A DNA stretch of 46,716 bases from a phage. Where the stretch lies: assembly GCA_018580065.1 (NCBI GenBank), contig GCA_018580065.1_4845.1, one strand, 5' to 3'. Both the position numbers and the translations under genes were made by a program. Below the pieces are notes generated by a model. It had not been told where the DNA came from, did no database searches, and saw only the letters and a program-made list of their open reading frames with translations. Each line of letters starts with the position of its first letter. Positions within the stretch are counted from its first letter, which is position 1. Below, one piece after another: positions 2,327-27,984 of this stretch.

Positions 2327-2403
2327 GGACGCGTAGCTTAATTGGTTAAAGCAACCGACTCATAATCGGCTGATTGAAGGTTCAAATCCGTCCGTGTCCA
2401 CCA
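2327..2403 (+). tRNA. tRNA with anticodon CAT (Met elongator-type or Ile2)
   Basis: Hand-folded cloverleaf: 7-bp acceptor stem GGACGCG/CGTGTCC, U8, D-loop with GG, anticodon loop CTCATAA, T-loop TTCAAAT, 3' ACCA; two stem mismatches. Confidence 0.7.
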
Positions 2404-3204: not shown

Positions 3205-3542
3205 GTCACCAGTGCGAAATCAGGTGGCTCAGCGCGATTGAACGTATTGCCATAATTAATCACATTCAGAATCTGATTTGCGCCAGCAACCAGCGGGTCA
3301 GCTTCTGTCACCGTGCCAATCATGATGTAGTCGCCAGTCTTAGCACCAACATACTCAGTCCAGAACGTATTCTTCTGCACAATCTCATTGCCTTTCGCAT
3401 CGGTAGATACATCATCGTTAAAACCATAATCGCACATGATGCTCACTGGCTCATCAAAAGTCGGCTTGCCGTACTTGTCGGTTCCGGTCTTGTGCCAGAT
3501 AGTGCATGGCTGCGTGTAAGAAAACCGAGAGATTGAGGTCAT
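3201..3542 (-). CDS. head-tail joining / head closure protein (by position)
   Basis: 113 aa ORF in connector operon. Confidence 0.35.
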   Translation of the reverse strand: MTSISRFSYTQPCTIWHKTGTDKYGKPTFDEPVSIMCDYGFNDDVSTDAKGNEIVQKNTFWTEYVGAKTGDYIMIGTVTEADPLVAGANQILNVINYGNTFNRAEPPDFALVT

Positions 3543-4150
3543 AAAACATTCCTATATGAACGATTTTTCTTGATGTGCTGGATAGCACCTTTAGACACGC
3601 CAAACTCATCAGCAAGTGATTGTGAGTGCTCTCCATTTGCTAGTCTGGTTCTCACCTCCCTAACCTGATCATCAGTTAATTTAGCGTGTTTTGGAGTCCT
3701 GCCGAACATTGGGTTTTTCTCGCCAATTCTTGATTGCGATATTTTCTTTCTTGTTTCTTCTGTTTTTGGACCCATAGAGCAAGGTGGTGTTTTCCCATAC
3801 CAGCAGTTATTCTTTCCCATCCTGCTTTTGCTCATTTTAGCTTTAGCCACATCTGTTGCCTGAACCCCCAAGCACGTACCAGCTATTTTTGCCACATTAT
3901 ATTGAGGACTTAGCTTGTCTATGTAGAATTGCTCTCTACTAAGCAGGATTGATTCATCGTTAACAATTTCAAGAATTGAAAATCTGAATAATGACTCGCC
4001 ATATTTTGCTCCATCATTATACAACCTGTGTGGGCTGTGCATGCCATTCCTCATTTTGTATCGATGCACAGCAATTCTATTGGTGTAGCTTATTGTTGAA
4101 CCAACATAAATCTCTTTAGTTATTGTATTTTCAATCTGATATACAGCCAT
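3539..4150 (-). CDS. GIY-YIG homing endonuclease (Seg/I-TevI-like)
   Basis: N-terminal VYQIEN...KEIYVGST (GIY...YIG) motif, NUMOD3-like repeats (KMSKSRMGKNN, ISQSRIGEKNPMFG), C-terminal HTH-like; ORF track begins 4168, MAVYQ start at 4150. Confidence 0.75.
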   Translation of the reverse strand: MAVYQIENTITKEIYVGSTISYTNRIAVHRYKMRNGMHSPHRLYNDGAKYGESLFRFSILEIVNDESILLSREQFYIDKLSPQYNVAKIAGTCLGVQATDVAKAKMSKSRMGKNNCWYGKTPPCSMGPKTEETRKKISQSRIGEKNPMFGRTPKHAKLTDDQVREVRTRLANGEHSQSLADEFGVSKGAIQHIKKNRSYRNVL

Positions 4151-4158
4151 CACTCTCT

Positions 4159-4551
4159 TCATTTGCACTTACTCCCACGAACAACCGCAAACCACGGTTT
4201 ACCGCTTCCGTCAGGGTCTTCCACTAAATCGCCAGTGCATCCGGCTGTATCCAGTAGCTTCATCTGATTGTACAGTGCCACCCACGGCTTGCTACCATAC
4301 GCGAATGATTGTGATGCGCCAGAAGGTGCGCTCTGCCTGGTGACGTAGCGCCCTGCGGTATTTGCGCTAATCAGGATGGAAGCCCACAGCATGATCGCAT
4401 TTTGTCGGCATTCATCATTTGGATAGTTCAGTTCAAGGCATTCGCTGATTGATGACACAAGGCACAGAATGCCAGACGCATCTGTCGTGGTGATGGTCAT
4501 CCCGCGCGACGCCATCTGACTGACCAGTTCTTCAGGTGTTGGTGCTGCCAT
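4159..4551 (-). CDS. hypothetical protein, possible head-tail connector component
   Basis: ORF track 142 aa from TTG; ATG at 4551 with GGGAG RBS. Confidence 0.35.
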   Translation of the reverse strand: MAAPTPEELVSQMASRGMTITTTDASGILCLVSSISECLELNYPNDECRQNAIMLWASILISANTAGRYVTRQSAPSGASQSFAYGSKPWVALYNQMKLLDTAGCTGDLVEDPDGSGKPWFAVVRGSKCK

Positions 4552-4816
4552 TTCTTTTCGACTCCCGTACCTTCCACCACATTTCAAACAGGTTCTTTAT
4601 TACCAGAGACAGAGCGCCGAGGATTGACGCTACTGCCGCCCACTCTGTCAGGCTGTGTGGAATCATAGCCTCAAAATAAGATTGCGTGACAGGTGCTTGT
4701 TCTGCAACTTTCAGACCGATACCGGTGCCAATAGAAGCGTATCCTGCCTTGTCAATCACCTGTCCTGTCGTTCCGCTTATAATCTGCTCTGCGACTTGCC
4801 TTAGTGTCCCGTTCAT
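4532..4816 (-). CDS. hypothetical protein with C-terminal hydrophobic helix
   Basis: ORF track 94 aa, ATG start. Confidence 0.4.
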   Translation of the reverse strand: MNGTLRQVAEQIISGTTGQVIDKAGYASIGTGIGLKVAEQAPVTQSYFEAMIPHSLTEWAAVASILGALSLVIKNLFEMWWKVRESKRNGSTNT

Positions 4817-4848
4817 TGCGTGTCTCGCTGATGATATGTTTCCAGCAC

Positions 4849-5289
4849 TTATAGATTTGAATCAGCGAAAAAACAATGGCGACCACGCCAAGAATAATGT
4901 CCAATTTCGCCGCCCCATTTAAAAGTGATGGAAAGGATGAACAGATGGATGCCGATAATAATAAATGCGTACTGCACATGAAGCGGCGTTTCTACAGGCG
5001 TGATAAATTCCCATACGAATGACTCTATCGCAACCAGCCATTCGTAAAGGCTCATCGTCAGCACGCAAAGCGCCATCTTTGTACTTTTGCGCAGCGCAAT
5101 AGCCGGAAACAACCAGACCATAGACTGCGCAAGGTAATACAGATATTCGGCGGGAAATGAATCAACAAGCACCCATCCAAGATACACAGACATCACCATT
5201 GCCGGAATGAACACCAGAAACGCGAACATGCCTGTGCAGGCAAAACCCAGCACATACATGATCATGATGGTAACATCTGCGCCGAACAT
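4849..5289 (-). CDS. polytopic membrane protein (about 4 TM helices)
   Basis: ORF track 146 aa, hydrophobic segments throughout. Confidence 0.5.
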   Translation of the reverse strand: MFGADVTIMIMYVLGFACTGMFAFLVFIPAMVMSVYLGWVLVDSFPAEYLYYLAQSMVWLFPAIALRKSTKMALCVLTMSLYEWLVAIESFVWEFITPVETPLHVQYAFIIIGIHLFILSITFKWGGEIGHYSWRGRHCFFADSNL

Positions 5290-5291
5290 TA

Positions 5292-5411
5292 TTTTTTACC
5301 GCGTGATGGTGAGCGGGTGGAGCCGTTTGGTTTCACTGCGCCAGTTTTGCCGCCGGTTTTGGTGTTACCAGTAGCGCGTGAACGAGACGGACCGTTTGTT
5401 GAACCCATGTT
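5292..5411 (-). CDS. small basic protein (39 aa)
   Basis: AGGAG RBS 7 nt before ATG; stop overlaps start of next gene (TAATG); below ORF-track cutoff. Confidence 0.3.
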
Positions 5412-5455
5412 TAAATCTCCTGTTGTTTGATTAGCATGATTTTAGCATATTCCTG

Positions 5456-5484
5456 TTGACGTAGATTGATGGTGTGTTTATAGT
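5456..5484 (+). promoter_or_regulatory. sigma70-like promoter, TTGACG-17nt-TATAGT, with two copies of the GACGTAGA motif
   Basis: TTGACGTAGATT at 5456-5467, TATAGT 5479-5484, second motif copy GTGACGTAGAAA at 5487-5498. Confidence 0.6.
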
Positions 5485-5524
5485 TAGTGACGTAGAAACA
5501 ACAATAAATGTTAGAGGTGATGAA

Positions 5525-5785
5525 ATGTTTGATATTGATAACCCAAGTGATGACAAAGCCAAGCTGATTGATGCGGTCGCTTGCAGTTTCGCATCTTGCC
5601 AGACAGAAGGTGAATATCAGGTTGTGAAAATGTGCATTGTTGAGTTCTTCTCGGCAATCAACATTCCTGATGATGAGGCGGTTGATATTCTGCTGTGTGC
5701 CGCTGGGAGCTCCACTGAGGCGGACGAGTGCATTGATGAACTGGTTGAGGAGTTTGGCGGCATTTTCCAGGGTGATGAGGAGTAA
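5525..5785 (+). CDS. small highly acidic protein, candidate DNA-mimic anti-restriction protein
   Basis: 86 aa from ATG 5525 (RBS AGAGGTGA); very Asp/Glu-rich; first gene after an early-type promoter. Confidence 0.5.
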   Translation: MFDIDNPSDDKAKLIDAVACSFASCQTEGEYQVVKMCIVEFFSAINIPDDEAVDILLCAAGSSTEADECIDELVEEFGGIFQGDEE

Positions 5786-5787
5786 TC

Positions 5788-5979
5788 ATGGCAAACATGT
5801 ACTACTGTATGTTCCGCAATACCGTGATTGATTTTCGTGATTGCGTTGATGCAATTGGTAATGCTGAGTCTATTGACGAGTTCAGCAATTCAGAACACAA
5901 GTCTGCCGAGCGCCTGTACCATCTGGCTAATGAGTACGTCGCATATTACGAGCAATTGTTAGAAGAAAGTGGTGAATGA
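5788..5979 (+). CDS. hypothetical acidic protein
   Basis: ORF track 63 aa. Confidence 0.45.
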   Translation: MANMYYCMFRNTVIDFRDCVDAIGNAESIDEFSNSEHKSAERLYHLANEYVAYYEQLLEESGE

Positions 5980-5980
5980 T

Positions 5981-6790
5981 ATGAAAACACTAAGCAAAAT
6001 CTATTCAGACAAAGAAACACGCAACGGCATCGCTGTTAACAAAACCTATCTCGTGCCAGTGGAGCAAATCTATCTGGAGCCGGGATATAACATCCGTGAA
6101 GCAGATGAGCAGCATGTTGAATATTTTGCGCAGTGCTGGGAGTCCGGCCAGCCATTACCAGCATTAACAGTTATTCCAGACGAGAAGGGAATCCGCATTC
6201 TTGATGGTCAGCATCGCTATCTCGGCGCATTGCGTGCCATTGAGCGCGGAGCACCAATCGTTCGAATTGAGTGCAAGGATTTCACTGGCGACGAGGCGGA
6301 CAAAATCGCCTTCATGGTGTCATCAAGTCAGGGTAAGCAGCTTGACCCGTTTGAGCGCGCAAAGGCTTACACGCGACTGAAAGGCTTCGGCTGGACGAAT
6401 GAAGAAATCGCAAAAAAGGTAGGGCGCTCAGTATCTGACGTGCAAATGCATCTGTCTCTTGGTGATGTTCCGGCGGAAGTAAAAGCGCGAATCAGCGCCG
6501 GGCAAATCAGCTATGCAAATGCCGTAGCAGTAACTCGTGAGCATGGTGACGATGCGGTAAAGGTTATCGACGAGGCGGTCGAGGAAGCCAAAGCGCAAGG
6601 TAAGGATAAGGTCACTGCGAAGGTGCTGAAGTCGAAAAAGATTAAGCCAGTAGACCGTCTGATTGAGTTATTGAAGCCAGCAGACCACGTGATTCTTCCT
6701 GCTGGTCATGTGGTGGCAGAGGATGAGGAATTTATCCAGATTCCTGTTGCTGACATTCACGAGGTTATGGCAATTCTGGAGAAGATGTGA
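5981..6790 (+). CDS. ParB-like nuclease domain protein with C-terminal HTH
   Basis: ILDGQHRYLGALRA motif typical of ParB/Srx N-domain; RBS before ATG 5981. Confidence 0.65.
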   Translation: MKTLSKIYSDKETRNGIAVNKTYLVPVEQIYLEPGYNIREADEQHVEYFAQCWESGQPLPALTVIPDEKGIRILDGQHRYLGALRAIERGAPIVRIECKDFTGDEADKIAFMVSSSQGKQLDPFERAKAYTRLKGFGWTNEEIAKKVGRSVSDVQMHLSLGDVPAEVKARISAGQISYANAVAVTREHGDDAVKVIDEAVEEAKAQGKDKVTAKVLKSKKIKPVDRLIELLKPADHVILPAGHVVAEDEEFIQIPVADIHEVMAILEKM

Positions 6791-7281
6791 TGAACACAAC
6801 TAAAATAAATTGGGGTGATATTTTTCATTATGAAAATGGGGTGCTTAGGTGGAAGCACCAAAAAAGAAAAATGCTAAGTGGCTCTTTAGCTGGGACAATT
6901 GCAAATACAGGATATGTAATCATATGCGTTGATTACAAAAAATTCTTGGCTCACAGAATCATATGGGAGATGTTTAATGGACCAATCCCTGACGGGATGC
7001 AAATTGATCACATTAACCATATTCGTAATGATAACCGCATTGAAAACTTAAGGCTGGTAAGCCATATAGAGAACCATAGAAATCTTAGTAGGCAGAAAAA
7101 TAACAAATCAGGAAGAACTGGCGTTAGCTTTGACAGGAAGAGTGGGTTATGGAGGGCTTATGTATCAAAGATGCATATTGGTTTTTTTGCCAATAAAGAA
7201 GATGCAATATCCGCTAGAGAAAAAGCTGAAACTTCAACTGGGTATCACGAGAATCACGGAGTAAAAAGTGAACGTTTATGA
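6787..7281 (+). CDS. HNH homing endonuclease with AP2-like DNA-binding domain
   Basis: IDHINHIRNDNRIENLRLVSHIENHRN HNH motif; C-terminal GVSFDRKSGLWRAYV AP2-like segment. Confidence 0.8.
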   Translation: MMNTTKINWGDIFHYENGVLRWKHQKRKMLSGSLAGTIANTGYVIICVDYKKFLAHRIIWEMFNGPIPDGMQIDHINHIRNDNRIENLRLVSHIENHRNLSRQKNNKSGRTGVSFDRKSGLWRAYVSKMHIGFFANKEDAISAREKAETSTGYHENHGVKSERL

Positions 7282-7441
7282 TTTTCTCGTCAAGCAACTC
7301 CGCGCCAAGTTGCCTGACATTGACCAGATGGCAATTGATGCGGCGATTCAATATTACAAGCGCAATCAGAGCGCAAAGAAGGGTGGTATTTTTGAAGAAT
7401 GCCTGAAGGTTGCAAAACAGCACATGATTAAGGTGAAGTGA
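7268..7441 (+). CDS. hypothetical small protein (57 aa, GTG start)
   Basis: Fills gap between HNH and next gene; helical basic sequence; start uncertain. Confidence 0.25.
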   Translation: MNVYDFLVKQLRAKLPDIDQMAIDAAIQYYKRNQSAKKGGIFEECLKVAKQHMIKVK

Positions 7442-7977
7442 TGAAACTAAAAATCAGCAAATTATTACTTGAGTCAGCATTAATATTTCAGGCGCGAAAC
7501 GATGTTCGCTACTACCTGAATGGCATCTGCTTCATGCCTGATGGTCGTATTGTCTCAACTGACGGTCATCGCGCATTCATTGGTGGCAGCCATGACAACA
7601 AGCTGACAGAGAATGTGATTATCAAGATGGTAAAGTCGCCAACAAAGCGATATGAATACGCCATAATTGATACCAAGTCGAAAATTGCAACGTATCATGA
7701 TGAAGCTGGCGTGATGGTTGGTACTGGTATCTGCGAAGAGATTGATGGTCGATTCCCTGATATTGATCGCGTCATTCCTAAGCAGACCTTGCCAACAGAG
7801 GAAATTGGCTTCAATGCTGGTTACCTTGTGGATATCGAGAAAGTGGCGAAGCTGTTTAACCCTAAATTCTGTGGGGTTAAGTTTGAACTGAATGGAAACA
7901 CAAATGCCGCAGTTTGCTGTCTTATCGCGCCATCTGGCGAGGCGGCGAAGATTGTTGTTATGCCTATGCGTCTGTAG
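7438..7977 (+). CDS. DnaN (beta sliding clamp) domain-like protein
   Basis: VRYYLNGICF...STDGHRAF resembles the LNGV...ATDGHRLA clamp signature; single-domain size (179 aa). Confidence 0.4.
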   Translation: MMKLKISKLLLESALIFQARNDVRYYLNGICFMPDGRIVSTDGHRAFIGGSHDNKLTENVIIKMVKSPTKRYEYAIIDTKSKIATYHDEAGVMVGTGICEEIDGRFPDIDRVIPKQTLPTEEIGFNAGYLVDIEKVAKLFNPKFCGVKFELNGNTNAAVCCLIAPSGEAAKIVVMPMRL

Positions 7978-7982
7978 CAATA

Positions 7983-8010
7983 AAAAACCCGCATAATGCG
8001 GGTTTTGTTT
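7983..8010. terminator. bidirectional intrinsic terminator
   Basis: AACCCGC-ataat-GCGGGTT flanked by A-run and T-run. Confidence 0.7.
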
Positions 8011-8206
8011 ACTCTGCTTTCTTTTTCTTTGTCGTCTTTTGTTGTGGTGTTGCGACTTCGAAAGACTTTTCCAGTTCTGGCATGATGCGCAATTTTGGTA
8101 GCAGATGCTCGTCTGGTTCGGTAATCACTTCGCCAAGCTGCAACTCACGAATCTTGCCTTTCTCTTTAACAAAGATTCCGCGTGCGATGACTTCGTATTT
8201 GGCCAT
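8009..8206 (-). CDS. hypothetical protein
   Basis: ORF track 65 aa, lysine-rich C-terminus. Confidence 0.4.
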   Translation of the reverse strand: MAKYEVIARGIFVKEKGKIRELQLGEVITEPDEHLLPKLRIMPELEKSFEVATPQQKTTKKKKAE

Positions 8207-8223
8207 TATTCACCTCAAATTTA

Positions 8224-8249
8224 TAAAGGGGCTTTCGCCCCTTTTTATT
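8224..8249. terminator. intrinsic terminator immediately after major capsid gene
   Basis: AAAGGGGC-tttc-GCCCCTTT hairpin with T-run. Confidence 0.65.
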
Positions 8250-9320
8250 ACTGCGGAGTTTGCGTACCGTAGCCGTTAAATACTTTCGAACGACCAGCGA
8301 AATCCTTGCGTATCTGGATTCCGTAAGCAGACCATACCATAAAGTTAAAGTTATCGTGCGGGTTGACACGGGCTGCTGCGTAGGTGGAAACAGGCTGAGC
8401 AACACGCGGGCGGATGTACATGTCGTTGCGAACGTAGCCAACGAAATGGTTACCAGTCAGCAGGAAGTTGGTGCCAATCTTGCCGATGCGACCATTACCA
8501 AACTGCGTGATGTACTGCTCAACAGTGCCGCCTTTGAAACCTGCTGCATCAGAATACGGACGCATGAAGCTGCGACGCACTGCCGGGGAAACCCACAGGG
8601 TCACCTGCTCAAATACGTTCTGCGCATCCAGAATAGCCTGGAAATCCTGATTGAAGAAGGTCACGATTTCGTCTGGCGTTGCAGTTTGCAGGTCGATATT
8701 AAGGCCGCCGGAAGCATTCAGGTTAACCTGAACAGTGTTCGGGTGGTTGGTGATACCGTAACCAGTGTAAACGCCGTTCACGTTCAGAGTCTGGTCGCCA
8801 GTCAGCAGATACTGCGCCATGTCGGAACGCAGGTTGAAGGTGACGTTGGCCTGATCGTCCAGCAGTGGGTCGAAGCCTTCAGACTGCATACCCAGCAGTT
8901 CGCGCCATTCGCGGCTGTAGCCAGTCTTGAAGATTGGAATCACATCACCAGTGTAATCGTAGCGAGTTTTATCCAAATCTTCCGGTTCCTGACCAGACAG
9001 AGTGCGGACAACCTTGCCAGCATCGGAAGCAATGCGGCTGATTGCCACAGTCTTACCAATGTTGATGTTTGCCGCGATACCCATCAGGTCAGCCATCATG
9101 TCCTGACCAGCTTCATTGCGGAAAACTCGGGTGGTCACGTTATCCACGTCGCGCCAGTAATCTTTCGTTACCAGTGCGGTAGCGTTCACACCGTAAGTTT
9201 TCGCCAGTTCAGCTTCTGCATTGCAGAACACCTTACGGTCGATGGTGAGATGTTTCCACTGGTCAGCCACCACTGCGGAGTTGGCTACCAAATCTTTGGT
9301 AAAAATAATCTTTTCCATCA

Positions 9321-9321
<1 letters not shown>
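8248..9321 (-). CDS. major capsid protein (lambda gpE-like position)
   Basis: 357 aa; follows decoration-like and scaffold genes in lambda C/Nu3-D-E order; terminator right after. Confidence 0.65.
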
Positions 9322-11200
<1,879 letters not shown>

Positions 11201-11537
11201 GGTTAACTCTCCACGGTTAGTTTGTGGTCGAATTATAACACAGGGAGATGTAGCACCATGAGGCGGTAGCCAGTGCAAATAATGGCGAATCGGTGAGTGC
11301 GTAGAGTGTGAGAAAGTAAGTGATAGGGATTATGTTCATGGGCTACCTCCTGATTAAATGATAGCAGCCCATGATGAATAAAAGATATACGGTGTTAGTC
11401 TGAAATTACATCATCCATGAATGCGAGAGCAGCACCTGTAAGACAAAACAGAGCGCCATAGCAAATCATCTGGTACAGAGTGTCAGCCTCAAATACCCTT
11501 GCGAATGCGTATGCTGATAATATCCACAGTAATGGAA

Positions 11538-11726
11538 TCATGGTCTACCCCTGTTTTCTTTGTAGAGTGCATCGCAGATTTTTTGATACTCCCTCTGAAA
11601 CCAGTCTATGTTCCTGTTGTAATCACTGCCTATTGCCTCAATCTTCTTTGTCGCCATTGCACTTGCTGCATTAATCAATGCAACCTGAACCTCAACAGGC
11701 AGCTCTGGAAATTTTGGGGTGTTCAT
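11538..11726 (-). CDS. hypothetical protein
   Basis: ORF track 62 aa. Confidence 0.4.
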   Translation of the reverse strand: MNTPKFPELPVEVQVALINAASAMATKKIEAIGSDYNRNIDWFQREYQKICDALYKENRGRP

Positions 11727-12049
11727 AACCCAGACTCCTGTTTTGCGCGATGCACGTATGACATAAACTTGCCAATCGGCATTTCCTTGCGGATTTGCGC
11801 CAGAATTGCTCCATGCAACATCCTTTCCTCACCAAAATACAGTTTATCAAGACGAGTTTTGATGAGTGCTCGCGTGCGCTTCATGTGGTCGCGCGCCTTA
11901 AGTGCCTTCTCATGCCAGATGCGGTCATTCTTCTTATCCGCATATTGAAGTTGGCGCTCAACGGTTTCGATTTCAAACGCAAGTTGCATGTCATAATCCT
12001 CAAGCTGAATGATGTCTGCTTTCATGATGTCGTTCAGTTGGATAATCAT
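11723..12049 (-). CDS. hypothetical protein
   Basis: ORF track 108 aa. Confidence 0.45.
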   Translation of the reverse strand: MIIQLNDIMKADIIQLEDYDMQLAFEIETVERQLQYADKKNDRIWHEKALKARDHMKRTRALIKTRLDKLYFGEERMLHGAILAQIRKEMPIGKFMSYVHRAKQESGL

Positions 12050-12438
12050 TTTTTCACCTTTAGTCCTGCACTGATAATTGCTTTCTCTGTCGCCATGACG
12101 CCATCGTTATAGCCTTGAGTCCATTCGTTATCATTATCACCGTCTCCGCATAGCCACGGCGTTGCAACTTCAATTGCTGCACGGGATGCCTGCCACGCCA
12201 TCCATGCAAGGTTTGTTTGATGGCATTTGTACTGCTGGTCATCCCATTCTGTCATTGGGTACTCCGTGCGCCATAAATCAAAGCCTGTTTCTTCCTTAAT
12301 CCACTCCTCAAACTGCTCTCTACTCGTCATCTTCACTTCCTCCACTATCCAGCCCATCTTTCTACGGTTATTGGCAATAAACTCATCCGATGTTACAAAC
12401 AGAGTTCTGCCTGATTTATGCTTAATAGCCCATCTCAT
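12046..12438 (-). CDS. hypothetical protein
   Basis: ORF track 130 aa. Confidence 0.45.
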   Translation of the reverse strand: MRWAIKHKSGRTLFVTSDEFIANNRRKMGWIVEEVKMTSREQFEEWIKEETGFDLWRTEYPMTEWDDQQYKCHQTNLAWMAWQASRAAIEVATPWLCGDGDNDNEWTQGYNDGVMATEKAIISAGLKVKK

Positions 12439-12563
12439 TTAGTACATCCTCAGCAAGTTTGCGGAACATGATTTGCACTCTTGCCACCTTGCGCCACTCA
12501 GCCTCGGTGAGAATCACATCTTCCTGCCGCGGCATTCCTGACATTTCGCATGGCGGTAATGGC

Positions 12564-13052
12564 TCATACTCTTGCTTCTTGCGTTTGGACTTCCCCATGA
12601 TGACCTCTTACATTGCGAAGAAGTGAATTAAACAGATTGCCGACGTTAACCTCCTGCTCACTCCATGAATAACGCCATATCTTCTTGTGGTGGTCATAGC
12701 TTCGCGTTACATCGCCGTTATGAAACATGATGCGAATGCGGCTTTTCACGATGCGGTAATCAATACCAGTGGCGGCGCTAATCTCTTTCACCTCTGCGCC
12801 AGCGTTATCAAGCATGTGGCACTTAATCGCATCATCAATACCTGCCGCATCATCAGATATAAAATATTTATACTGCCACTTCCCGCCACGAATCACTGAC
12901 TTCTCGCGGCGAATAAAGCCAAGCGCAAGCATCTCATGCAAACGATGCGTTGTGGTGCTTGAATGCTTTCCTCTGCAATGCTCCTCAATGTATGCACGCG
13001 TTGCGCCGGGATGCATCATAATCACGCGCATGATTTGCGATTTATAATCCAT
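12564..13052 (-). CDS. putative DNA-binding protein (winged-helix-like)
   Basis: ORF track 162 aa; basic helical N-terminal region. Confidence 0.4.
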   Translation of the reverse strand: MDYKSQIMRVIMMHPGATRAYIEEHCRGKHSSTTTHRLHEMLALGFIRREKSVIRGGKWQYKYFISDDAAGIDDAIKCHMLDNAGAEVKEISAATGIDYRIVKSRIRIMFHNGDVTRSYDHHKKIWRYSWSEQEVNVGNLFNSLLRNVRGHHGEVQTQEARV

Positions 13053-13299
13053 GAGCGCGCTCCTCTACTGCCTGATTAAAGTCTTCGGCGATGTACAGAT
13101 GTCCGTTGCGGGTGTTCCATTTTTTAATTATGACTGATTTCTGTTGATACAAATCAGTTGCAATGCCACACCCCAAGCAAACAATTTGCGATAATCCATC
13201 CTCTCTATCCATTGTCGCATCTCCGCTACCACAGAACGGGCACTCAAGCAATCCTTCATCATTCATCATCGGCATATGTGGTGCGCTCATTTCAACCAT
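13042..13299 (-). CDS. Lar-like zinc-ribbon protein (restriction alleviation family)
   Basis: CPFCGS...CLGCG zinc ribbon followed by KKWNTR, matching Lar-family pattern. Confidence 0.5.
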   Translation of the reverse strand: MVEMSAPHMPMMNDEGLLECPFCGSGDATMDREDGLSQIVCLGCGIATDLYQQKSVIIKKWNTRNGHLYIAEDFNQAVEERAHGL

Positions 13300-13481
13300 T
13301 CTCCAATGTTGTTAAATTTAGGCGCATCGCCAGACCAGTCGATGACATCTCTTTGCTGACTGCGCTTGCGTTGCAGACGGTTTCGCACCTCTCGCAGCTC
13401 ACATTCAAGCCATTCACGAGTGCGCTCAACTTCATTCAGTCGCCGGATTAGCGATTGTTCGTACAGTTCGTCATGCGCCAT
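13287..13481 (-). CDS. hypothetical coiled-coil protein
   Basis: ORF track 64 aa. Confidence 0.4.
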   Translation of the reverse strand: MAHDELYEQSLIRRLNEVERTREWLECELREVRNRLQRKRSQQRDVIDWSGDAPKFNNIGEWLK

Positions 13482-13541
13482 TTGTAATTTCTCCCGTAGA
13501 ACTTAATAACAACGTGCTCAACGCACAGATAACCTTCGTCT

Positions 13542-13739
13542 TCAACCGTTACTGGTTGAACTATAAACCACCGCAGATATAAGTTCGTCAGCCTTTTCAC
13601 GACCAGCAACCTCCGCTTCAAGCGCCAGTGAACACATGGCAGTTTCCACATACTTAATGGTGTCCTCGCGTACGTTAAGTATTTCCATAACCTCGCGCAC
13701 CTCTTTCTGATATCTCGCTGCTATTTCTTTGTATCGCAT
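13542..13739 (-). CDS. hypothetical protein
   Basis: ORF track begins with TTG at 13769; first ATG at 13739. Confidence 0.4.
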   Translation of the reverse strand: MRYKEIAARYQKEVREVMEILNVREDTIKYVETAMCSLALEAEVAGREKADELISAVVYSSTSNG

Positions 13740-13767
13740 TTCCACATCACCTTTTACGTTGTGGTAC

Positions 13768-13814
13768 AATCTACGTCAATAAGTATTGACTATGTGACGT
13801 AGAAACGTCAAGAT
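13768..13814. promoter_or_regulatory. divergent promoter/operator region with inverted GACGTAGA motif pair
   Basis: AATCTACGTCAA (13768-13779) and TGACGTAGAAA (13795-13805) form a dyad; TTGACT -35 at 13786-13791. Confidence 0.45.
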
Positions 13815-13837
13815 GTTTTCGAGAAGGAGTAGTAAAT

Positions 13838-14032
13838 ATGCCAAGACCACGACGCGAGCCGATGGACATTATCACCAGCATTGTGGAGAAGCGGCAGCCG
13901 CTGACACTCCGTGATGTTCGCTACTTTGCCCGTTGCTATGTGGCACTGGCTGATATGCCTAAAGATGAGATGTACCAGATGATTCGTGAGAATTTTAATG
14001 TTGATGAAAATAACCGGGTGACGATGAAATGA
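13838..14032 (+). CDS. hypothetical protein
   Basis: ORF track 64 aa; GAAGGAG RBS. Confidence 0.5.
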   Translation: MPRPRREPMDIITSIVEKRQPLTLRDVRYFARCYVALADMPKDEMYQMIRENFNVDENNRVTMK

Positions 14033-14613
14033 AAAAATGGAAATATCTGAAAGGCTGTGAGGATGATTTTGCTGGCCATGACACGGCTTATCTTGTAGTT
14101 AAGTCAGGAAGTACTGGTGAGATTTTCTATCTAAGCATAGATTATGCTGGTCGCATTGAAGTGATTGAGGGTTGCGGGGATGTTGTTATTGCATACCGCG
14201 AGCCAATTACCGACGAGCAAGACCTCAATGATTGCATTGGTGCGCCGGAAGCAGATTTGAATCGAGGTGGCTTTATTCCCAACACCACATTTGTTGGCGG
14301 TTTCCTGCCTGAAGGATATCCGACCTTTGGTCACACCAATTGCCGATGCAAGTCAGTTAAAGTTGGCGAGACTCACATCGACGGGAAATGCCATGAGGCG
14401 CAACTTGGAAACAAATACCTGCACGAAATTAAGCCTGGTGTATTTGTTGACGTGTACGATGTGCTCATGGCGTGGAATGTCACAAATCCAGCGCTGCAGC
14501 ATCTGATTAAAAAGGCACTGCAGCCAGGCGAGCGCGGACACAAATCACGCGAACAGGATTTACAGGACATCATTGATAGCGCAATTCGCGCAAAAGAACT
14601 GGAGATTAAATAA
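14029..14613 (+). CDS. hypothetical protein
   Basis: ORF track 194 aa, coupled to neighbours. Confidence 0.5.
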   Translation: MKKWKYLKGCEDDFAGHDTAYLVVKSGSTGEIFYLSIDYAGRIEVIEGCGDVVIAYREPITDEQDLNDCIGAPEADLNRGGFIPNTTFVGGFLPEGYPTFGHTNCRCKSVKVGETHIDGKCHEAQLGNKYLHEIKPGVFVDVYDVLMAWNVTNPALQHLIKKALQPGERGHKSREQDLQDIIDSAIRAKELEIK

Positions 14614-14921
14614 TGGCATTCTGCGACATCACCATCGCGCAACGAAACGCGAACTTTACCAACATTGCTGACACATCAGCGCAGCTGGTATCACTGAATA
14701 GCGACGGCAGTGCGGTGCTGAAAATCGGCACCGAAACAGCGCAATTCATTGTGCAGAATCTGTCACAGGCGAATGCAAAGCAGGTGCTGATTAGCACTGG
14801 CAGCGTGCTGTTTCTGGCTGGTAATTACAATGCGCCGAACCTTGAATGTTCACTGGTGCGCATCGTTGAAGCTGCGGTTGAGGAATCTGTTGATGAGCCA
14901 ACAACATTGCCAGCAGAGTGA
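14613..14921 (+). CDS. hypothetical protein
   Basis: ORF track 102 aa. Confidence 0.45.
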   Translation: MAFCDITIAQRNANFTNIADTSAQLVSLNSDGSAVLKIGTETAQFIVQNLSQANAKQVLISTGSVLFLAGNYNAPNLECSLVRIVEAAVEESVDEPTTLPAE

Positions 14922-15051
14922 GCCACCAAAACCATCTGCATGGTGTGAGCAAATGGAACGCAATGCGAAGGATGGTGATGAGGCTTATACTTATTTCCAG
15001 CTGAAGCAAATGTGGAAGCAGAGAGAAAGTTCAGAGCAAGCCACTTAAACA

Positions 15052-15078
15052 CAAGCCCCTTCACGGGGCTTTTTTATT
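15052..15078 (+). terminator. intrinsic terminator
   Basis: AGCCCC-ttca-CGGGGCT followed by TTTTTTATT. Confidence 0.7.
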
Positions 15079-15319
15079 GGAAGTTGTCACGATACCATCC
15101 CTGCCAATCGTAAATAGTCATCTTCCTTTTGGTAGCGCACTCCGTATTCTGGTTTTCTATAACAATGCTCTCATCGCTGTTTTTCGGTGCCACTTTCGAC
15201 AATTCGCACACCTCCCCCAACATTTCTGCTGACGGCTGAGTCTGCGTTGAGAGCTGATTGGCGCAACCGGATATAGTCATCATCAAAAGTGCAAACGGTA
15301 CGGTTCTGGTCGGAGACAT
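15074..15319 (-). CDS. o-spanin (Rz1-like outer-membrane lipoprotein)
   Basis: Lipobox LLMMTISGC after short signal; overlaps 3' end of i-spanin gene in another frame. Confidence 0.6.
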   Translation of the reverse strand: MSPTRTVPFALLMMTISGCANQLSTQTQPSAEMLGEVCELSKVAPKNSDESIVIENQNTECATKRKMTIYDWQGWYRDNFQ

Positions 15320-15560
15320 ATTTCACCACATCGCGATAAATGGTTTTGTATTTAGTTTCGGTCACCACGCGCACCTGTTGGGATTGCGCGGTTGACTTTG
15401 CCTGTTTGTTTTCTGCGTTCTGTTTGCGCTTGGCGGCATCAAGATTGACCTTATCACTATGAGCATACCATCCTTTCAGGTAGCCAGCGCCAAATAATAG
15501 CGAACCAATAGCAATGCCGGTCAATAGCAGAATTATAATTAATTTAACTTTTACCATCAT
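15171..15560 (-). CDS. i-spanin (Rz-like)
   Basis: N-terminal TM helix then charged coiled-coil; downstream of holin and endolysin. Confidence 0.6.
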   Translation of the reverse strand: MMVKVKLIIILLLTGIAIGSLLFGAGYLKGWYAHSDKVNLDAAKRKQNAENKQAKSTAQSQQVRVVTETKYKTIYRDVVKYVSDQNRTVCTFDDDYIRLRQSALNADSAVSRNVGGGVRIVESGTEKQR

Positions 15561-15780
15561 TGCGCAGCCTCCGGTTTTCCTTCCTCATGCCGTGCATCTT
15601 GCCGAGAATACCAACCAGCATGATTGAATAGCTCACACCTTTGACCACGATTGGCGGCAGCGCTGCTTTCAGGTCGTCCGGCATCATTACCCACACATGC
15701 ATCATTGCGTCAGGCCATAGTTGCAACAGTGAGCAGAACGAAATCCACGCGCCGAGCAGCCAGTTGCTTAGCTTTTTCAT
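15544..15780 (-). CDS. holin-like protein (two TM helices, charged C-terminus)
   Basis: 78 aa, two hydrophobic helices, C-terminal KENRRLRNDGKS; within lysis cassette. Confidence 0.5.
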   Translation of the reverse strand: MKKLSNWLLGAWISFCSLLQLWPDAMMHVWVMMPDDLKAALPPIVVKGVSYSIMLVGILGKMHGMRKENRRLRNDGKS

Positions 15781-16241
15781 GTCACAGCCCCGCCAGCATC
15801 CTTGTATACCTGAATCAGCTTATCCAGTTTCTGCTCATGCTGACCATAGCCAGCACCCGGCAATGAAGCCCAGCGGGAACGGCATTTATGGATGGCATCA
15901 GCAATGCGACCAGCCTCGATGTCGGTAGTGGCCTTGCATTCACGGATTAGCTGCATTGCAATGGCATCCTGTGATGCAGGAGAGAAGTCAGGCAGGCGCA
16001 GTTGCTTTTTGTATGCATCATAAAACTTAGCCAGCACCTGATAGCGCCCGGCGGCGGTGGATTTGATGCCCAGCCTAGGCAGACTAATCAGCTTGCGCGG
16101 GTGATCGGAATAGTCAGTAAACAGTGAGCCGCCAACGATCACATCATAACCATGATTATTGGTTTTCTGTCGCCCGTTATCAGTCCCCTCGCTGTACGCC
16201 AGCATATCCAGAAACGCCTTCATGTTTTTGCTAATAGCCAT
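15777..16241 (-). CDS. endolysin, lambda R-type lytic transglycosylase
   Basis: MKAFLDMLAYSEGTDNGRQKTNNHGYDVIVGG...YSDHPR...WASLPGAGYGQ closely matches lambda R; start MAISKN at 16241 (ORF track extends to 16322). Confidence 0.85.
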   Translation of the reverse strand: MAISKNMKAFLDMLAYSEGTDNGRQKTNNHGYDVIVGGSLFTDYSDHPRKLISLPRLGIKSTAAGRYQVLAKFYDAYKKQLRLPDFSPASQDAIAMQLIRECKATTDIEAGRIADAIHKCRSRWASLPGAGYGQHEQKLDKLIQVYKDAGGAVT

Positions 16242-16509
16242 ACCAGTAAACCTCTTTTTCAGCTTTGCGTTTTGCCTTATCACCAGTCTTCTCGCACCAC
16301 ACGATGAAATGCGCAACAGCACATGAGAAGCAGCGGAGATTGTGCTTCTTCAGAAGCGTTGATTTACGGAACACGTCAATGCCAATGTCAGTAGCAAGGC
16401 TCGTCAGCGCGTCGAACTGATTCTGTGTCGTCTTGGTAGTGATATAGGGCGATATATCTACGGCATCGGTGATTCCAAGGGTCTCTATGCCGCGTTGCGA
16501 TAGTTTCAT
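16231..16509 (-). CDS. truncated GH24 lysozyme-like protein lacking the catalytic N-lobe
   Basis: TQNQFDALTSLATDIGIDVFRKSTLLKKHNL matches lysozyme C-lobe; only about 20 aa precede it; AGGAGG RBS, in-frame stop 5 codons upstream of ATG. Confidence 0.5.
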   Translation of the reverse strand: MKLSQRGIETLGITDAVDISPYITTKTTQNQFDALTSLATDIGIDVFRKSTLLKKHNLRCFSCAVAHFIVWCEKTGDKAKRKAEKEVYWYGY

Positions 16510-16553
16510 CCTGCCTCCTGCTCAAATAATAACTAATTCTATCACAATGGCTA

Positions 16554-16584
16554 TTGACGTAGATTGAGCGGTGGTGCATAGTAT
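16554..16584 (+). promoter_or_regulatory. sigma70-like promoter with GACGTAGA dyad
   Basis: TTGACGTAGATT 16554-16565, -10 candidates CATAGT/TAGTAT 16577-16584, inverted copy ATCTACATCA 16583-16592. Confidence 0.5.
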
Positions 16585-16614
16585 CTACATCAAGTGATGA
16601 GTGAGGTGATGAAG

Positions 16615-16836
16615 ATGGAAATAAAACTTAACAAAGAAAGTAATATGCTAAGTCTTACCGGGCAGGGCGAGATGGTGTTCACAAGGCTAAAAAATGGAAA
16701 TGAAACCGCAATAACAATGATATGTGAAGGAGCGAAAACTTCTGTTTCAAATATGTATCTGGTCAATTTGAAAGAGAAAACAAGGGTTGGTAGATTTCTC
16801 TCTGCGCTGAAGCATGTGTGGATTCTTGCCAAATGA
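16615..16836 (+). CDS. hypothetical protein
   Basis: ORF track from GTG 16594; ATG 16615 has GAGGTGA RBS. Confidence 0.45.
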   Translation: MEIKLNKESNMLSLTGQGEMVFTRLKNGNETAITMICEGAKTSVSNMYLVNLKEKTRVGRFLSALKHVWILAK

Positions 16837-16846
16837 AGGTGTAATT

Positions 16847-16990
16847 ATGGTAATGGTCAAATTCAAAGAAAACGGACGCTGCGGAGTGTTCGGTCTTGAA
16901 CAAATCAAAATCCGTCCGTGCGGTAAAGTGGTTGCACCATTTGGTCTGGTGCAGATGCGTGAATGTGAGATCGTGGAATATATTAAGTGA
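16847..16990 (+). CDS. hypothetical small protein (47 aa)
   Basis: Fills inter-ORF gap, ATG start; below ORF-track cutoff. Confidence 0.3.
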   Translation: MVMVKFKENGRCGVFGLEQIKIRPCGKVVAPFGLVQMRECEIVEYIK

Positions 16991-16998
16991 GGTTAGAA

Positions 16999-17277
16999 AT
17001 GACAAAACGCGAATTACACCAATTATTTAACAAATGGCTTGATTCTGTTGGTTTTGGCGACATGAATGATAGAGAGAAGGACTTGCTTTGGTTTGGGTTT
17101 TCTGTTGGATATTGCCACGACAATAACAAGACCATGCTCGCAGCACTCCAGCAGCTTCTGGAAATCTACGACGACCATTCAGGAAAAGCCTGGACAACAT
17201 CAAGCAAGCGTCGTGCTCTGGATAATGCGCGCGATGCGGTTAATAAAGCGCTGGGGGAGCGCAATGAAACAATGTGA
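16999..17277 (+). CDS. hypothetical protein
   Basis: ORF track from GTG 16987; ATG at 16999. Confidence 0.45.
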   Translation: MTKRELHQLFNKWLDSVGFGDMNDREKDLLWFGFSVGYCHDNNKTMLAALQQLLEIYDDHSGKAWTTSSKRRALDNARDAVNKALGERNETM

Positions 17278-17749
17278 TCTTTTCCGTGTTCTTAGTTATA
17301 ACCCTGAATCTGGTGAATTCACGTGGATTAAATCAAGAAGACATGGGTTTAGCGGTCGAAAGGCTGGGTCGGTAAATGGGAAAGGGTACATACAGATCTG
17401 CATTGATGGAAAGCTTTATCTTGCGCACAGGCTTGCTCTTCTATACGTGACAGGAGAGATGCCAAAGGAGGTGGATCATATTAACAGGGTGAGAGATGAC
17501 AATAGATTATGCAACTTAAGGCCATGCACTTCATCTGAAAATAAGCACAACAAGGATATCACATCCAGAAACAAAACAGGGATGAAGGGCGTCAGCTGGT
17601 ATCCTGCCGGAAATTCATGGCGAGTAAGGATATGCGTAAATAAAACACAGATTCATCTGGGCTACTACGAAGACATTGAGCTGGCAGAGCTTGTGTCGCA
17701 AGAGGCGAGAATTAAATACGCAGGAGATTTTAATTATGAAGCTTATTGA
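17264..17749 (+). CDS. HNH homing endonuclease with AP2-like domain (second copy)
   Basis: VDHINRVRDDNRLCNLRPCTSSENKHN HNH motif; GVSWYPAGNSWRVRI AP2-like; paralogous to 6787..7281; ORF track begins upstream in-frame at 17066. Confidence 0.8.
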   Translation: MKQCDLFRVLSYNPESGEFTWIKSRRHGFSGRKAGSVNGKGYIQICIDGKLYLAHRLALLYVTGEMPKEVDHINRVRDDNRLCNLRPCTSSENKHNKDITSRNKTGMKGVSWYPAGNSWRVRICVNKTQIHLGYYEDIELAELVSQEARIKYAGDFNYEAY

Positions 17750-18371
17750 TTTACTGGTTAAAGAATTACCTAAGCGTGGCGGGTGGCCTGAGGGTGCCGT
17801 TGAGTGTCAACGATTTGTTGATGAGGCAACCATTGATTTTTACGATGAAAATGGCAACTGGGATGATGACTGCTCACTTACTTACGGCTCGATAGCGGTG
17901 GAACTCGTCAGAAAGCAGACGTACCCTTGCGAGAGCGAGCAAGTAACTCGCAAGCAATACGAATCCGCACTTGCAGCATCTCAAAAGCCAGCATGGAACG
18001 GCGAAGGTCTTCCGCCAGTTGGTGAGAAAGTTGAGTTCTTCATTAATCCAAAACTCGGATACAGAAACGCCTGGAATCCTGATGCTGGCACTGAAATGGA
18101 AGTGGTTGCACACAAGACAACAACGGATGGCAATAATGTGGCAGTTTGTTATTGGGATGAGCGCGGCGCAGGAAGGTCACACTGCTTCGTACCAGAAAGC
18201 CTAAAACCACCACGCTCAGAAGCAGAGCGCAAGCGTCATGAGGCAGCAGAATCCATTGACTTTTATATGCCGGAATTTATTACCGATACGCCAAATGAGT
18301 TTTACCACGCCAAAAAGATTTACGACGCCATCGCGGCAGGTAAGATTCCCGGCGTGAAACTGGAGGATTGA
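17736..18371 (+). CDS. hypothetical protein
   Basis: ORF track from 17676; ATG at 17736 overlaps HNH stop. Confidence 0.45.
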   Translation: MKLIDLLVKELPKRGGWPEGAVECQRFVDEATIDFYDENGNWDDDCSLTYGSIAVELVRKQTYPCESEQVTRKQYESALAASQKPAWNGEGLPPVGEKVEFFINPKLGYRNAWNPDAGTEMEVVAHKTTTDGNNVAVCYWDERGAGRSHCFVPESLKPPRSEAERKRHEAAESIDFYMPEFITDTPNEFYHAKKIYDAIAAGKIPGVKLED

Positions 18372-18372
18372 T

Positions 18373-18501
18373 ATGTGGTTATTCCCGTTTCTTCTCGGTA
18401 TTGCGTGGTTTGTGATGTATATGTTTGGTGGTAATGATTTCGACGTGGTGATTGCAAATATATGGATGGCGACTAGCTTCATGCTTGCTAACAATAAATA
18501 A
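18373..18501 (+). CDS. small membrane protein (42 aa)
   Basis: Hydrophobic ORF between 17736..18371 and terminator; below ORF-track cutoff. Confidence 0.3.
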   Translation: MWLFPFLLGIAWFVMYMFGGNDFDVVIANIWMATSFMLANNK

Positions 18502-18504
18502 AAC

Positions 18505-18533
18505 CAAGCCCTCACTTAGAGGGCTTTTTGTTA
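18505..18533. terminator. bidirectional intrinsic terminator
   Basis: AAGCCCTC-actta-GAGGGCTT with T-run. Confidence 0.7.
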
Positions 18534-19433
18534 TTGCTCTGGTTTTCCTCCGAGCTTTCTAATAATTTCTGCAGCAACGCACGGATCAACATTAAAAAAT
18601 TCAGTCGCCCCATCGAAACCTGACAACCCAGCATTTAAGTCCTTTAGCTTTCTATGCGCAGCGCCTTCCGCTTTCCTTGCTTTGTAATAGCTTTCGAATG
18701 AGAACTGACACAACAAAGATATAGAAAGACCTGATTTTTTAGTTAGTTGCTGAATCCTTAGAGGAACGTTATTTGATAACCCTATCTTTATCATTCCATT
18801 TGCTTCCAACAAATAAACCATAGTCTTTTTGAATGGGTTTCTTCCTGCGCATTTTGCACACCCGTGCCCCTTGGCGTGATGGCCAGCAAACTGGCGAAAA
18901 CTGCCATGAATAGGGCATATTATTTCAACCATGCTATTCATGCCACTAAAAACTACCTCATCATATGAATATTTCCCGCCATGGGCCTCTTTGCATCTTG
19001 CTATGAAGGATTCTGTATCCATGCCGCCCTTTCCACTGCAAACCCTGCACCCAATATTCCCTCTCAAGTGATCTCTTGCTATTTGCTGGAATTCACCATG
19101 TTTTTTGCACCTTATGGTTATCATTGACAGCATTCCAGAGTATTTGGTTGGTGAATAATCATAAATATCATGGTTTTTACTGGGAATCATATCCATAAAC
19201 TCATCATGACTGTACCCGTTATGCATTCCCCTGCCGGGCCTGCACTTTCTGCATCCGTTGCAACCGTTGAGGTGATCATTTGGCGTCTGTTTAAATAACA
19301 CATCATGCTTAATACATCTGATTATTACTGGCGATTTCCTTTTGATGTATTTAGTTTCTGAATAGTCAAATTTATCGCCGTGGATTAACTTAGCGCGTGA
19401 AATGAAATCTTCTGTGGTAGGTCTTTTTGCCAT
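18531..19433 (-). CDS. T5orf172-domain (GIY-YIG-related) protein with three N-terminal Cys-rich repeats; putative homing endonuclease
   Basis: C-terminal VYLLEANGMIKIGLSNN...GATEFFNV; three ~45-aa repeats each ending GCxxC; ATG 19433 (ORF track starts TTG 19517). Confidence 0.6.
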   Translation of the reverse strand: MAKRPTTEDFISRAKLIHGDKFDYSETKYIKRKSPVIIRCIKHDVLFKQTPNDHLNGCNGCRKCRPGRGMHNGYSHDEFMDMIPSKNHDIYDYSPTKYSGMLSMITIRCKKHGEFQQIARDHLRGNIGCRVCSGKGGMDTESFIARCKEAHGGKYSYDEVVFSGMNSMVEIICPIHGSFRQFAGHHAKGHGCAKCAGRNPFKKTMVYLLEANGMIKIGLSNNVPLRIQQLTKKSGLSISLLCQFSFESYYKARKAEGAAHRKLKDLNAGLSGFDGATEFFNVDPCVAAEIIRKLGGKPEQ

Positions 19434-19528
19434 TATTAACCCCGTAGCAGGTTCGTAGATTGAGGATTGCAGCAGGGTGTCTACGTTCACCTTTTCGTCT
19501 GGCCGGACTAGCTGCAATTGAGATTATA

Positions 19529-26975: not shown

Positions 26976-27205
26976 ACCCTAACCCCCATAATTTCTTCGT
27001 AATAACCATCCTCTTCAAACTCAATCTTTGCGATTGTGAGCGCATCCTCATCAGTGATGTCAATCGCTTTGAATTTGCACTTTGCCAGCACTATGCATCC
27101 TGACAAGATTAGCCACTTATTCCACCATCGCACTCGCCTGATTGTTTTGCTGTCATACATTTTATTCTGCACTATCCAGAACTCGTATGTTTTTACTTTT
27201 GCCAT
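26972..27205 (-). CDS. hypothetical protein
   Basis: ORF track 77 aa. Confidence 0.45.
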   Translation of the reverse strand: MAKVKTYEFWIVQNKMYDSKTIRRVRWWNKWLILSGCIVLAKCKFKAIDITDEDALTIAKIEFEEDGYYEEIMGVRV

Positions 27206-27241
27206 ATCATCACCATTAAAAATAAGAATGCTGAATCGTGT

Positions 27242-27424: not shown

Positions 27425-27427
27425 TTG

Positions 27428-27971: not shown

Positions 27972-27984
27972 CATGCAGAGAAAG

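Follow-up and report, generated by a model that had tools for sequence, protein, structure and literature searches.

Four probable free-standing homing endonuclease genes in a 46,716-nucleotide phage sequence and their patchy distribution among related siphophages

Overview of the locus

The window analysed here is a whole phage contig of 46,716 nucleotides (NCBI GenBank assembly GCA_018580065.1, contig GCA_018580065.1_4845.1). It carries four intact genes with domains of endonuclease families: a GIY-YIG gene in the neck cluster, two HNH_3 genes (HNH-1 and HNH-2) in plus-strand islands and a T5orf172-type gene directly after the head morphogenesis gene MuF (Table 1). Each has exact junctions, is patchily distributed among related phages, is more similar to its copy in another phage than its flanks are and has a low guanine + cytosine (GC) content. 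We put at about 80% the probability that the four are free-standing homing endonuclease genes, laterally acquired and carried as dispensable passengers.

The first 22 kb of the window is ~90% identical, at a coverage of at most 76%, to siphophages of Salmonella, E. coli and Shigella, which are split among the small genera Skatevirus, Segzyvirus, Deseoctovirus, Caminolopintovirus, Saltrevirus and Swiduovirus; the gaps in this coverage are the subject of this report. Presence or absence was established by searching each gene, with ~600–900 bp of flank per side, against 50,697 phage records, and junctions were mapped by local BLAST and alignments. Related records numbered ~130–160 per site, ~70 of which are laboratory derivatives of one phage (seszw), with GenBank/RefSeq duplicates in addition. 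Domains were called with Pfam, families were named with PHROGs, and RNAs and introns were sought with Rfam.

The four open reading frames (ORFs) had been listed in a first-pass annotation made from the nucleotide sequence; all are present, with ends that match the coordinates given there or differ by a few codons, and all have significant domain matches. They lie between complete neighbouring ORFs, a placement unlike that of intron- or intein-borne genes. No intron family was found in the window with Rfam, and all four genes are therefore free-standing. Neither Pfam on 20 further ORFs nor tblastn with a panel of 20 endonuclease proteins from relatives revealed a fifth endonuclease gene in the window, intact or as a remnant.

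Table 1. Coordinates of the endonuclease genes and associated features in the window
Feature	Position	Strand	Basis and remarks
GIY-YIG homing endonuclease gene, free-standing	3539..4162 (ORF 3539-4168)	-	Pfam, PHROGs 'homing endonuclease'; more likely start used
HNH-1, HNH_3 endonuclease gene	6787..7281	+	Pfam, phrog_99 'HNH endonuclease'
HNH-2, HNH_3 endonuclease gene	17264..17749	+	Pfam, phrog_99; hypervariable plus-strand island
Bidirectional terminator hairpin	18506..18526	both	Comparison with phages lacking the cassette
T5orf172-type endonuclease gene	18531..19433	-	Pfam, PHROGs 'endonuclease'
Whole T5orf172 cassette, 1008 bp	18531..19538	-	Comparison with empty site in Lewi and with DS8, Bas80
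Hairpin AACCU..GGGUU	19438..19453	-	Predicted to pair the Shine-Dalgarno region just before ATG 19433; minimum free energy and centroid folds
Structured RNA leader, Rfam int-alpA (RF02996)	19453..19518	-	Covariance-model match; P1 closing two hairpins
Extended -10 promoter box TGATATAAT (predicted)	19523..19531	-	Read from sequence; 5' edge of cassette
MuF (head morphogenesis) gene, class A allele	19529..20485	-	Pfam Phage_Mu_F

Gene products and boundaries

The GIY-YIG protein matches PF01541 with 39.5 bits (cut-off 22.6; E = 7e-10) and contains two NUMOD3 motifs (58.3 bits; E = 7e-16), which are separate DNA-binding modules. In an alignment with I-TevI (1LN0/1MK0; E = 2e-9), residues Y6, Y17, R27, H31, H40 and E75 are kept, while N90 of I-TevI aligns only with a three-residue shift (YNVA versus YNIA). 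Read by eye, the C-terminus possibly forms a helix-turn-helix. The gene is placed between a DUF7370 gene and the next gene of the neck cluster, with ATGA overlaps at both ends. Its start had been set at 4150; ATG 4162 is more likely because it gives an ATGA overlap with the upstream stop and a length equal to that of the homologue in phage Segz_1.

The HNH_3 domain scores 78.5 bits in HNH-1 (E = 3e-22) and 45.5 bits in HNH-2 (E = 6e-12) against a cut-off of 24.8, and the pair matches phrog_99 with E values of 2e-59 and 5e-66. The two proteins are homologous but distant, with 34% identity over 139 residues (E = 3e-26). The AP2 label given to them in the first-pass annotation is weakly supported, with scores below the Pfam cut-off of 33.3 bits in both proteins (19.8–22.1 bits over profile positions 2–51 of 54 in HNH-2; 12.5–15.3 bits over positions 3–21 only in HNH-1). 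The plus-strand islands proposed for these genes are real, and both genes overlap their neighbours as reported. HNH-1, which may start at GTG 6787 or at ATG 6790, overlaps the stop of a ParB-like gene (as GTGA or TGATG) and extends 14 nucleotides into the next ORF (57 residues); HNH-2 overlaps its upstream ORF by 14 nucleotides and its downstream ORF by 11.

In the product of the T5orf172-type gene the C-terminal region matches both T5orf172 (37.5 bits, cut-off 20; E = 3.5e-9) and MUG113 (33.5 bits, cut-off 22.3), and the protein belongs to phrog_681 (E = 5e-66). It also matches DUF723 (27.4 bits, cut-off 20.9) and, weakly, DUF4379, and three zinc-finger repeats of the DUF723/DUF4379/CapR-like pattern ...C..HG.F......HL.G..GC..C are visible. 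ATG 19433 is supported as the start because the stretch that precedes it in the longer ORF is taken up by an RNA leader. The assignment of the four genes to three families holds at the level of Pfam; T5orf172 is usually placed in the GIY-YIG superfamily. Searches by sequence found no relatives of solved structure for HNH-1 or for the T5orf172 protein. According to the literature, nuclease activity in the T5orf172 family is known just for distant members.

Junctions and distribution among relatives

The GIY-YIG gene occupies its site in two of 154 matching records, both of phage Segz_1. In the window and in Segz_1 it forms a clean 620-bp insertion (3543–4162), and eight genomes with an empty site join window position 3542 to 4159 via one shared ATGA. 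The gene is 96.8% identical at the nucleotide level to that of Segz_1, compared with 75–87% for the flanks, and has a GC content of 39.3%, against 50–52% in its neighbours. Among the 50,697 records the closest proteins are those of Segz_1 (96% amino-acid identity) and, next, of a Pseudomonas phage (44%). Within 15 nucleotides of the junction both carriers have TCAATCTCT, where the eight genomes without the gene have TCACTGGCT or TCGCTGGCT; the TCAATCTCT variant could be either a resistant form of the target or the trace of a short co-conversion.

HNH-1 is found at its site in six of 161 records (DS8, AB4P2 and PHA46_2). The gene (GC content 36.8%) is 97.5% identical to that of DS8, with flanks at 89–92%; phages C1 and DS8 both belong to Deseoctovirus, and only DS8 has it. 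One of the carriers is deposited as 'Acinetobacter phage vB_AbaM_AB4P2' (OR544125.1) and is, in this part of its genome, ~91% identical to Salmonella and E. coli siphophages; the host and morphotype label of this record looks doubtful.

HNH-2 is present at its site in three records, representing phages Bas80 and Sf11 only. It shares 484 of 486 nucleotides (99.6%) with the Bas80 copy, while the flanks are 85–92% identical or not alignable, and its protein is 100% and 99.4% identical to those of Bas80 and Sf11, the next best match being 49%. The T5orf172 gene occurs in seven records only (LPST10, STGO-35-1, EI_sp1/2 and ZK22; 95–99% amino-acid identity). Together with MuF it is 96% identical to LPST10 and STGO-35-1, with the portal flank at 90.5%.

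Taken over the four genes, identity to the copy in another phage is 96–99.6%, against 75–92% or no alignment for the flanks, and GC content is 37–42%, against 44–52% in neighbouring genes. The carriers belong to different genera of the International Committee on Taxonomy of Viruses (Skatevirus, Segzyvirus, Deseoctovirus and Caminolopintovirus), and each has close relatives without the gene concerned. Homologues of the HNH family are found in 2582 phage records and those of the T5orf172 family in 623, often with several copies per genome.

The first-pass annotation had favoured mobile insertions over fixed core genes and had proposed a comparison of the junctions in relatives. That comparison bears the proposal out: not one of the four is kept throughout the group at its site, and relatives without them show clean or alternatively filled junctions. 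That the four are fixed core genes, for example nucleases associated with packaging or replication, is extremely improbable. Their position inside operons with coupled translation signals would suit such a role, but the great majority of relatives lack them at the same junctions, which already refutes it; none of the four adjoins the terminase gene, and the HNH genes are of the HNH_3 type (PF13392) and not of the classical HNH profile (PF01844) that characterizes terminase-associated HNH proteins.

The number of such genes had been called heavy. The count of four stands, but it is not exceptional: a tblastn search with the panel gave one to six endonuclease-like genes in each of ten relatives (median 4), with six in 64795_sal3, four each in Segz_1, Bas80, Seszw_1, AB4P2 and Lewi, two in DS8 and one each in STGO-35-1 and C1. 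The load of the window is typical of the phage group. Across the group the genes occupy a dozen or more sites, namely before the terminase gene, before the portal gene, between portal and MuF, after MuF and after the spanin gene, and further in the early region, between the ParB and clamp genes, at the neck junction, between tail genes, after the tape-measure gene and beside the helicase gene. Segz_1 in addition has a terminase large subunit gene (41793–44312, 2520 bp) that contains an intein with Hint and LAGLIDADG domains.

Location next to essential genes, also proposed earlier, applies to the GIY-YIG gene, in the neck/connector cluster, and to the T5orf172 gene, after MuF, but not to the HNH genes, which lie among accessory genes. 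Proximity of endonuclease genes to essential phage genes is a published pattern for the T5orf172 and HNH types (PMC10448857).

The surroundings of the HNH genes raise the question of whether a nuclease is needed to account for their movement. The junction after the ParB-like gene (~6795–7291) is a cargo hot spot across phages: between this gene and the 57-residue ORF at least six unrelated alternatives are found, among them 79 bp, four mutually unrelated small ORFs (50–81 residues) and a DNA methyltransferase gene. The clamp-like gene that adjoins HNH-1 is missing from laboratory genome-reduced seszw records (PMC9825161). In Seszw_1 the HNH-2 site is filled by an unrelated 71-residue ORF, and the GIY-YIG junction (Seszw_1 9893–10031) by an unrelated 142-bp insert with an ORF of ~47 residues that overlaps the downstream gene as ATGA. 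The small ORFs that replace HNH-1 and HNH-2 and the Seszw_1 insert were considered as decayed endonucleases and rejected, as they resemble no endonuclease and do not resemble one another. Such junctions are what would be expected if the genes, HNH-1 and HNH-2 in particular, were ordinary accessory cargo moved by homologous or illegitimate recombination at hot spots, with the nuclease playing no part. We regard this as unlikely, since the occupants belong to families with experimentally characterized homing members, across diverged backbones these genes vary far less than the DNA that flanks them, and endonuclease genes are over-represented in the variable cargo of the group, at one to six per genome and more than 12 sites.

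The T5orf172 cassette and its RNA leader

A 1008-bp cassette that includes the T5orf172 gene is inserted at CTCACAA^CAAAAAGCCC, between the last codons of MuF and the MuF terminator; the empty site is seen in phage Lewi. The cassette replaces the last MuF codons, changing the C-terminus from ..SAHNKKPSK to ..SAHKAK, and supplies the new end codons and stop. In phages without it the MuF ORF ends within the terminator hairpin, whereas in the window the hairpin follows the T5orf172 gene. The TGA within the extended -10 box TGATATAAT is the MuF stop codon. This box, which is predicted to act as the promoter of the cassette, was not listed by a sigma-70 scan because the scan needs a -35 box.

Directly after the -10 box lies a match to int-alpA, a motif that reportedly comes from the 2017 motif set of Weinberg et al. 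The match scores 37.3 bits against a gathering score of 35.8 and spans the full model (positions 1–71), with an E value of 1e-6 when only the local stretch is searched and of 3e-4 for the whole window; a whole-window Rfam run with default filters missed it. Like the Rfam family, the leader has a three-helix junction with conserved CUAG, GAAAAG and CCUG. Related copies score 30.8–38.8 bits against RF02996. Across 12 distinct copies 89.7% of cells are paired, compared with 81% in shuffles (0 of 500) and 28–44% in slid controls, and compensatory changes are seen in all three helices: three of the four pairs of P3 are changed on both sides, P2 has UA to AU, and P1 has GCAGC/GCUGC to GCGGC/GCCGC. 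This covariation, from few related copies, is moderate evidence for the leader. As a thermodynamically unusual fold the leader was rejected (z-score -0.11), stability alone being uninformative, and the structure accordingly rests on the Rfam match and the covariation. A further hairpin, over the Shine-Dalgarno region, has 82% of cells paired across copies and one pair with a compensatory change; that it covers the ribosome-binding site is weakly supported.

The 100 nucleotides between the MuF stop and ATG 19433 recur at 206 places in 122 phage records. Every copy of the leader opens with TGATATAAT or TGGTACAAT at the point where the preceding gene stops, and the sampled genes downstream encode T5orf172, HNH_3-AP2 and HNH-NUMOD3 endonucleases. 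Scanning IMG/VR for the exact pattern yielded 118 instances, and in 108 of these at least 400 nucleotides follow. The next ORF matches the endonuclease panel in 58 of these 108 (nine of them of GIY-YIG type) and has no match in the other 50; most of the non-matching leaders listed precede a long primase/helicase-like ORF (937 residues in one read fully). In Segz_1 an int-alpA-like copy (41709) stands directly upstream of the terminase gene, with no free-standing endonuclease gene there. On E. coli chromosomes and islands int-alpA follows an integrase gene and precedes a ~310-residue protein without a Pfam match and an AlpA-like gene. A leader specific to endonuclease genes is ruled out by the 50 IMG/VR copies, the Segz_1 terminase copy and the E. 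coli integrase copies. The window has a different context from the integrase/alpA one, its leader lying in a lytic phage between MuF and an endonuclease gene, and it lacks the U-run that follows P1 in E. coli. We found no functional study of int-alpA RNA in the searchable literature.

Opposite-strand genes of T5orf172 type, each with an int-alpA-type leader, also occur right after the tape-measure gene in several relatives (Bas80 27203–28078; L007 26097–27164; L015 1597–2475; L017 1582–2475). In Bas80 this gene is followed by a 1371-bp ORF, a possible sign that the tape-measure region there has been split or rearranged.

Linkage to one MuF allele

MuF proteins of the group fall into two classes that are ~50% identical to each other. 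The window protein (class A) has 92–99% amino-acid identity to those of five phages with a downstream endonuclease gene and ~50% to those of four phages without one. The adjoining portal protein is 94–97% identical between the window and seven of eight relatives, and 67–70% identical to those of Segz_1 and Seszw_1. A T5orf172-type gene lies directly downstream of MuF in all five class-A genomes examined and in none of the four class-B genomes, and of 17 records that have the 3' end of a class-A MuF, 16 continue straight into the leader, Lewi alone being empty. In 64795_sal3 the endonuclease gene is followed by ~25 bp left over from the 3' end of a class-B MuF; this footprint suggests that class-A MuF and the endonuclease gene arrived jointly in a class-B genome. 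MuF alleles lie also at L004 31833–32786 and L009 ~6344–7405. In PJN025 (OR921208.1, 31897–32350) a class-A MuF end and leader are followed by a match to only the first 64 residues of the T5orf172 protein (56%); the endonuclease gene there could be decayed or replaced.

The tight linkage to one MuF allele (16 of 17 records) and the possession of a predicted promoter and a structured leader would also be in keeping with domestication, in which one or more of the nucleases, chiefly T5orf172, would help the phage to compete against co-infecting phages or satellites (by marker exclusion or an Odn-like anti-satellite function) or would act in regulation. There is precedent in ICP1, where T5orf172 nucleases have been co-opted and their zinc-finger domains became a repressor (PMC10448857). 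We nevertheless consider domestication here quite unlikely. The site is intact and empty in Lewi, and the after-MuF position holds different endonucleases in different phages (a 300-residue type, a 362-residue type and, in Segz_1, an HNH protein). Seszw_1 and Skate have a relative of the T5orf172 gene (43% identical) between portal and MuF; this related gene is absent from laboratory genome-reduced seszw records (PMC9825161), and the seszw gene is therefore dispensable. Pfam, moreover, found no satellite-derived DNA-binding domain such as RepA_N in the T5orf172 protein.

A model for the spread of the genes

Intron-less homing is the reading we prefer because of the family membership of the four genes and the comparative signatures described above. 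From sequence we infer nuclease activity, target sites, the homing step, the promoter and any role of the leader. During co-infection with a related phage without the gene, the nuclease would cut that genome near the empty site, and recombinational repair from the gene-carrying genome would carry over the nuclease gene and some of the sequence beside it. The GIY-YIG gene, HNH-1 and HNH-2 would have slotted into existing operons; translational coupling is probable for them because their start and stop codons overlap those of their neighbours. The T5orf172 gene would instead travel as a self-contained cassette of extended -10 promoter, int-alpA-type leader and ORF, and would use the resident terminator. 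The linked divergent MuF allele could have been co-converted with the cassette, or could be the cleavage-resistant allele.

Several points weigh against this model. The HNH-1 and HNH-2 junctions carry many unrelated cargos, and recombination in conserved flanks could move genes without a nuclease, which is a reasonable alternative. The shared flank tracts at the GIY-YIG gene and HNH-1 are short (~20–35 nucleotides), with no long co-conversion gradient, and the TCAATCTCT junction variant is represented by two carriers only. The linkage of T5orf172 to MuF could come from shared ancestry of the module. Finally, the record counts are inflated by the seszw derivatives and the duplicates, the independent phages being nearer 60–70; the conclusion on patchy distribution is unchanged at that number.

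For some T4 endonucleases, hairpins gate timing or translation. It is conceivable, if on balance doubtful, that int-alpA is a portable promoter-proximal leader of mobile-element genes, which here travels with at least four endonuclease families and gates the timing or translation of the nuclease, and that the T5orf172 cassette drives the replacement of one MuF allele by the other, ~50% identical one. If true, this would give the uncharacterized int-alpA RNA family its first functional context and would provide an example of an endonuclease-driven sweep in an essential structural gene.

Other features of the window

A tRNA-Met gene (2327–2403, plus strand) lies between the minus-strand tail and neck genes; the annotations of Bas80 and STGO-35-1 include this tRNA too. 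The replication module (~28800–37750, plus strand) comprises a Prim-Pol/PriCT_2/DUF3987 protein of 777 residues, AAA_24, Gp157, DUF669, DUF3268 and a DEAD-box helicase. The relatives examined have, by annotation, an Erf/exonuclease VIII/SSB/primase module unlike that of the window, which suggests a swap of modules.

Comparison with known systems and implications

The GIY-YIG gene resembles the free-standing GIY-YIG genes of T-even phages (I-TevI domain; Seg proteins) in its catalytic residues, NUMOD3 motifs, intergenic site and sporadic distribution. The differences are the siphophage genome of 46 kb, the position between neck genes, the ATGA overlap on either side and the lack of an intron. 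The two HNH genes share with the HNH_3/AP2 phage homing endonucleases (phrog_99) the HNH_3 motif, a length of ~160 residues and a three-part layout. They differ in the AP2 region, which remains below the Pfam cut-off in both proteins while that of the related Seszw_1 gp73 reaches 36.2 bits, and in occupying sites specific to this phage group. The T5orf172 gene has the same CapR/DUF723/DUF4379-like zinc fingers and C-terminal T5orf172 domain as the homing endonucleases of ICP1 and other phages (Barth, Dunham and Seed 2023, PMC10448857), adjoins an essential structural gene as they do and likewise has several related copies in its phage group. Unlike them, it lies in a defined 1008-bp cassette with a predicted promoter and an int-alpA-type leader; the inserted cassette recodes the end of MuF and is linked to one of two MuF classes that have diverged by ~50%.

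The four genes are new examples of known endonuclease types, and homing endonuclease genes are known to pepper the genomes of lytic phages beside conserved genes. Such genes mark the boundaries of genetic exchange, and four well-delimited examples are added here. Several are deposited as 'hypothetical protein' in relatives, where the present assignments can be used for annotation, and for phage engineering the four genes, with the sites they occupy, probably offer insertion points that the phage can spare. Of greater use are three by-products: the exact map of the T5orf172 cassette, the association of this cassette with one MuF allele and the connection of int-alpA with endonuclease leaders. 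All three can be tested directly in Salmonella and E. coli phages that are easy to grow.

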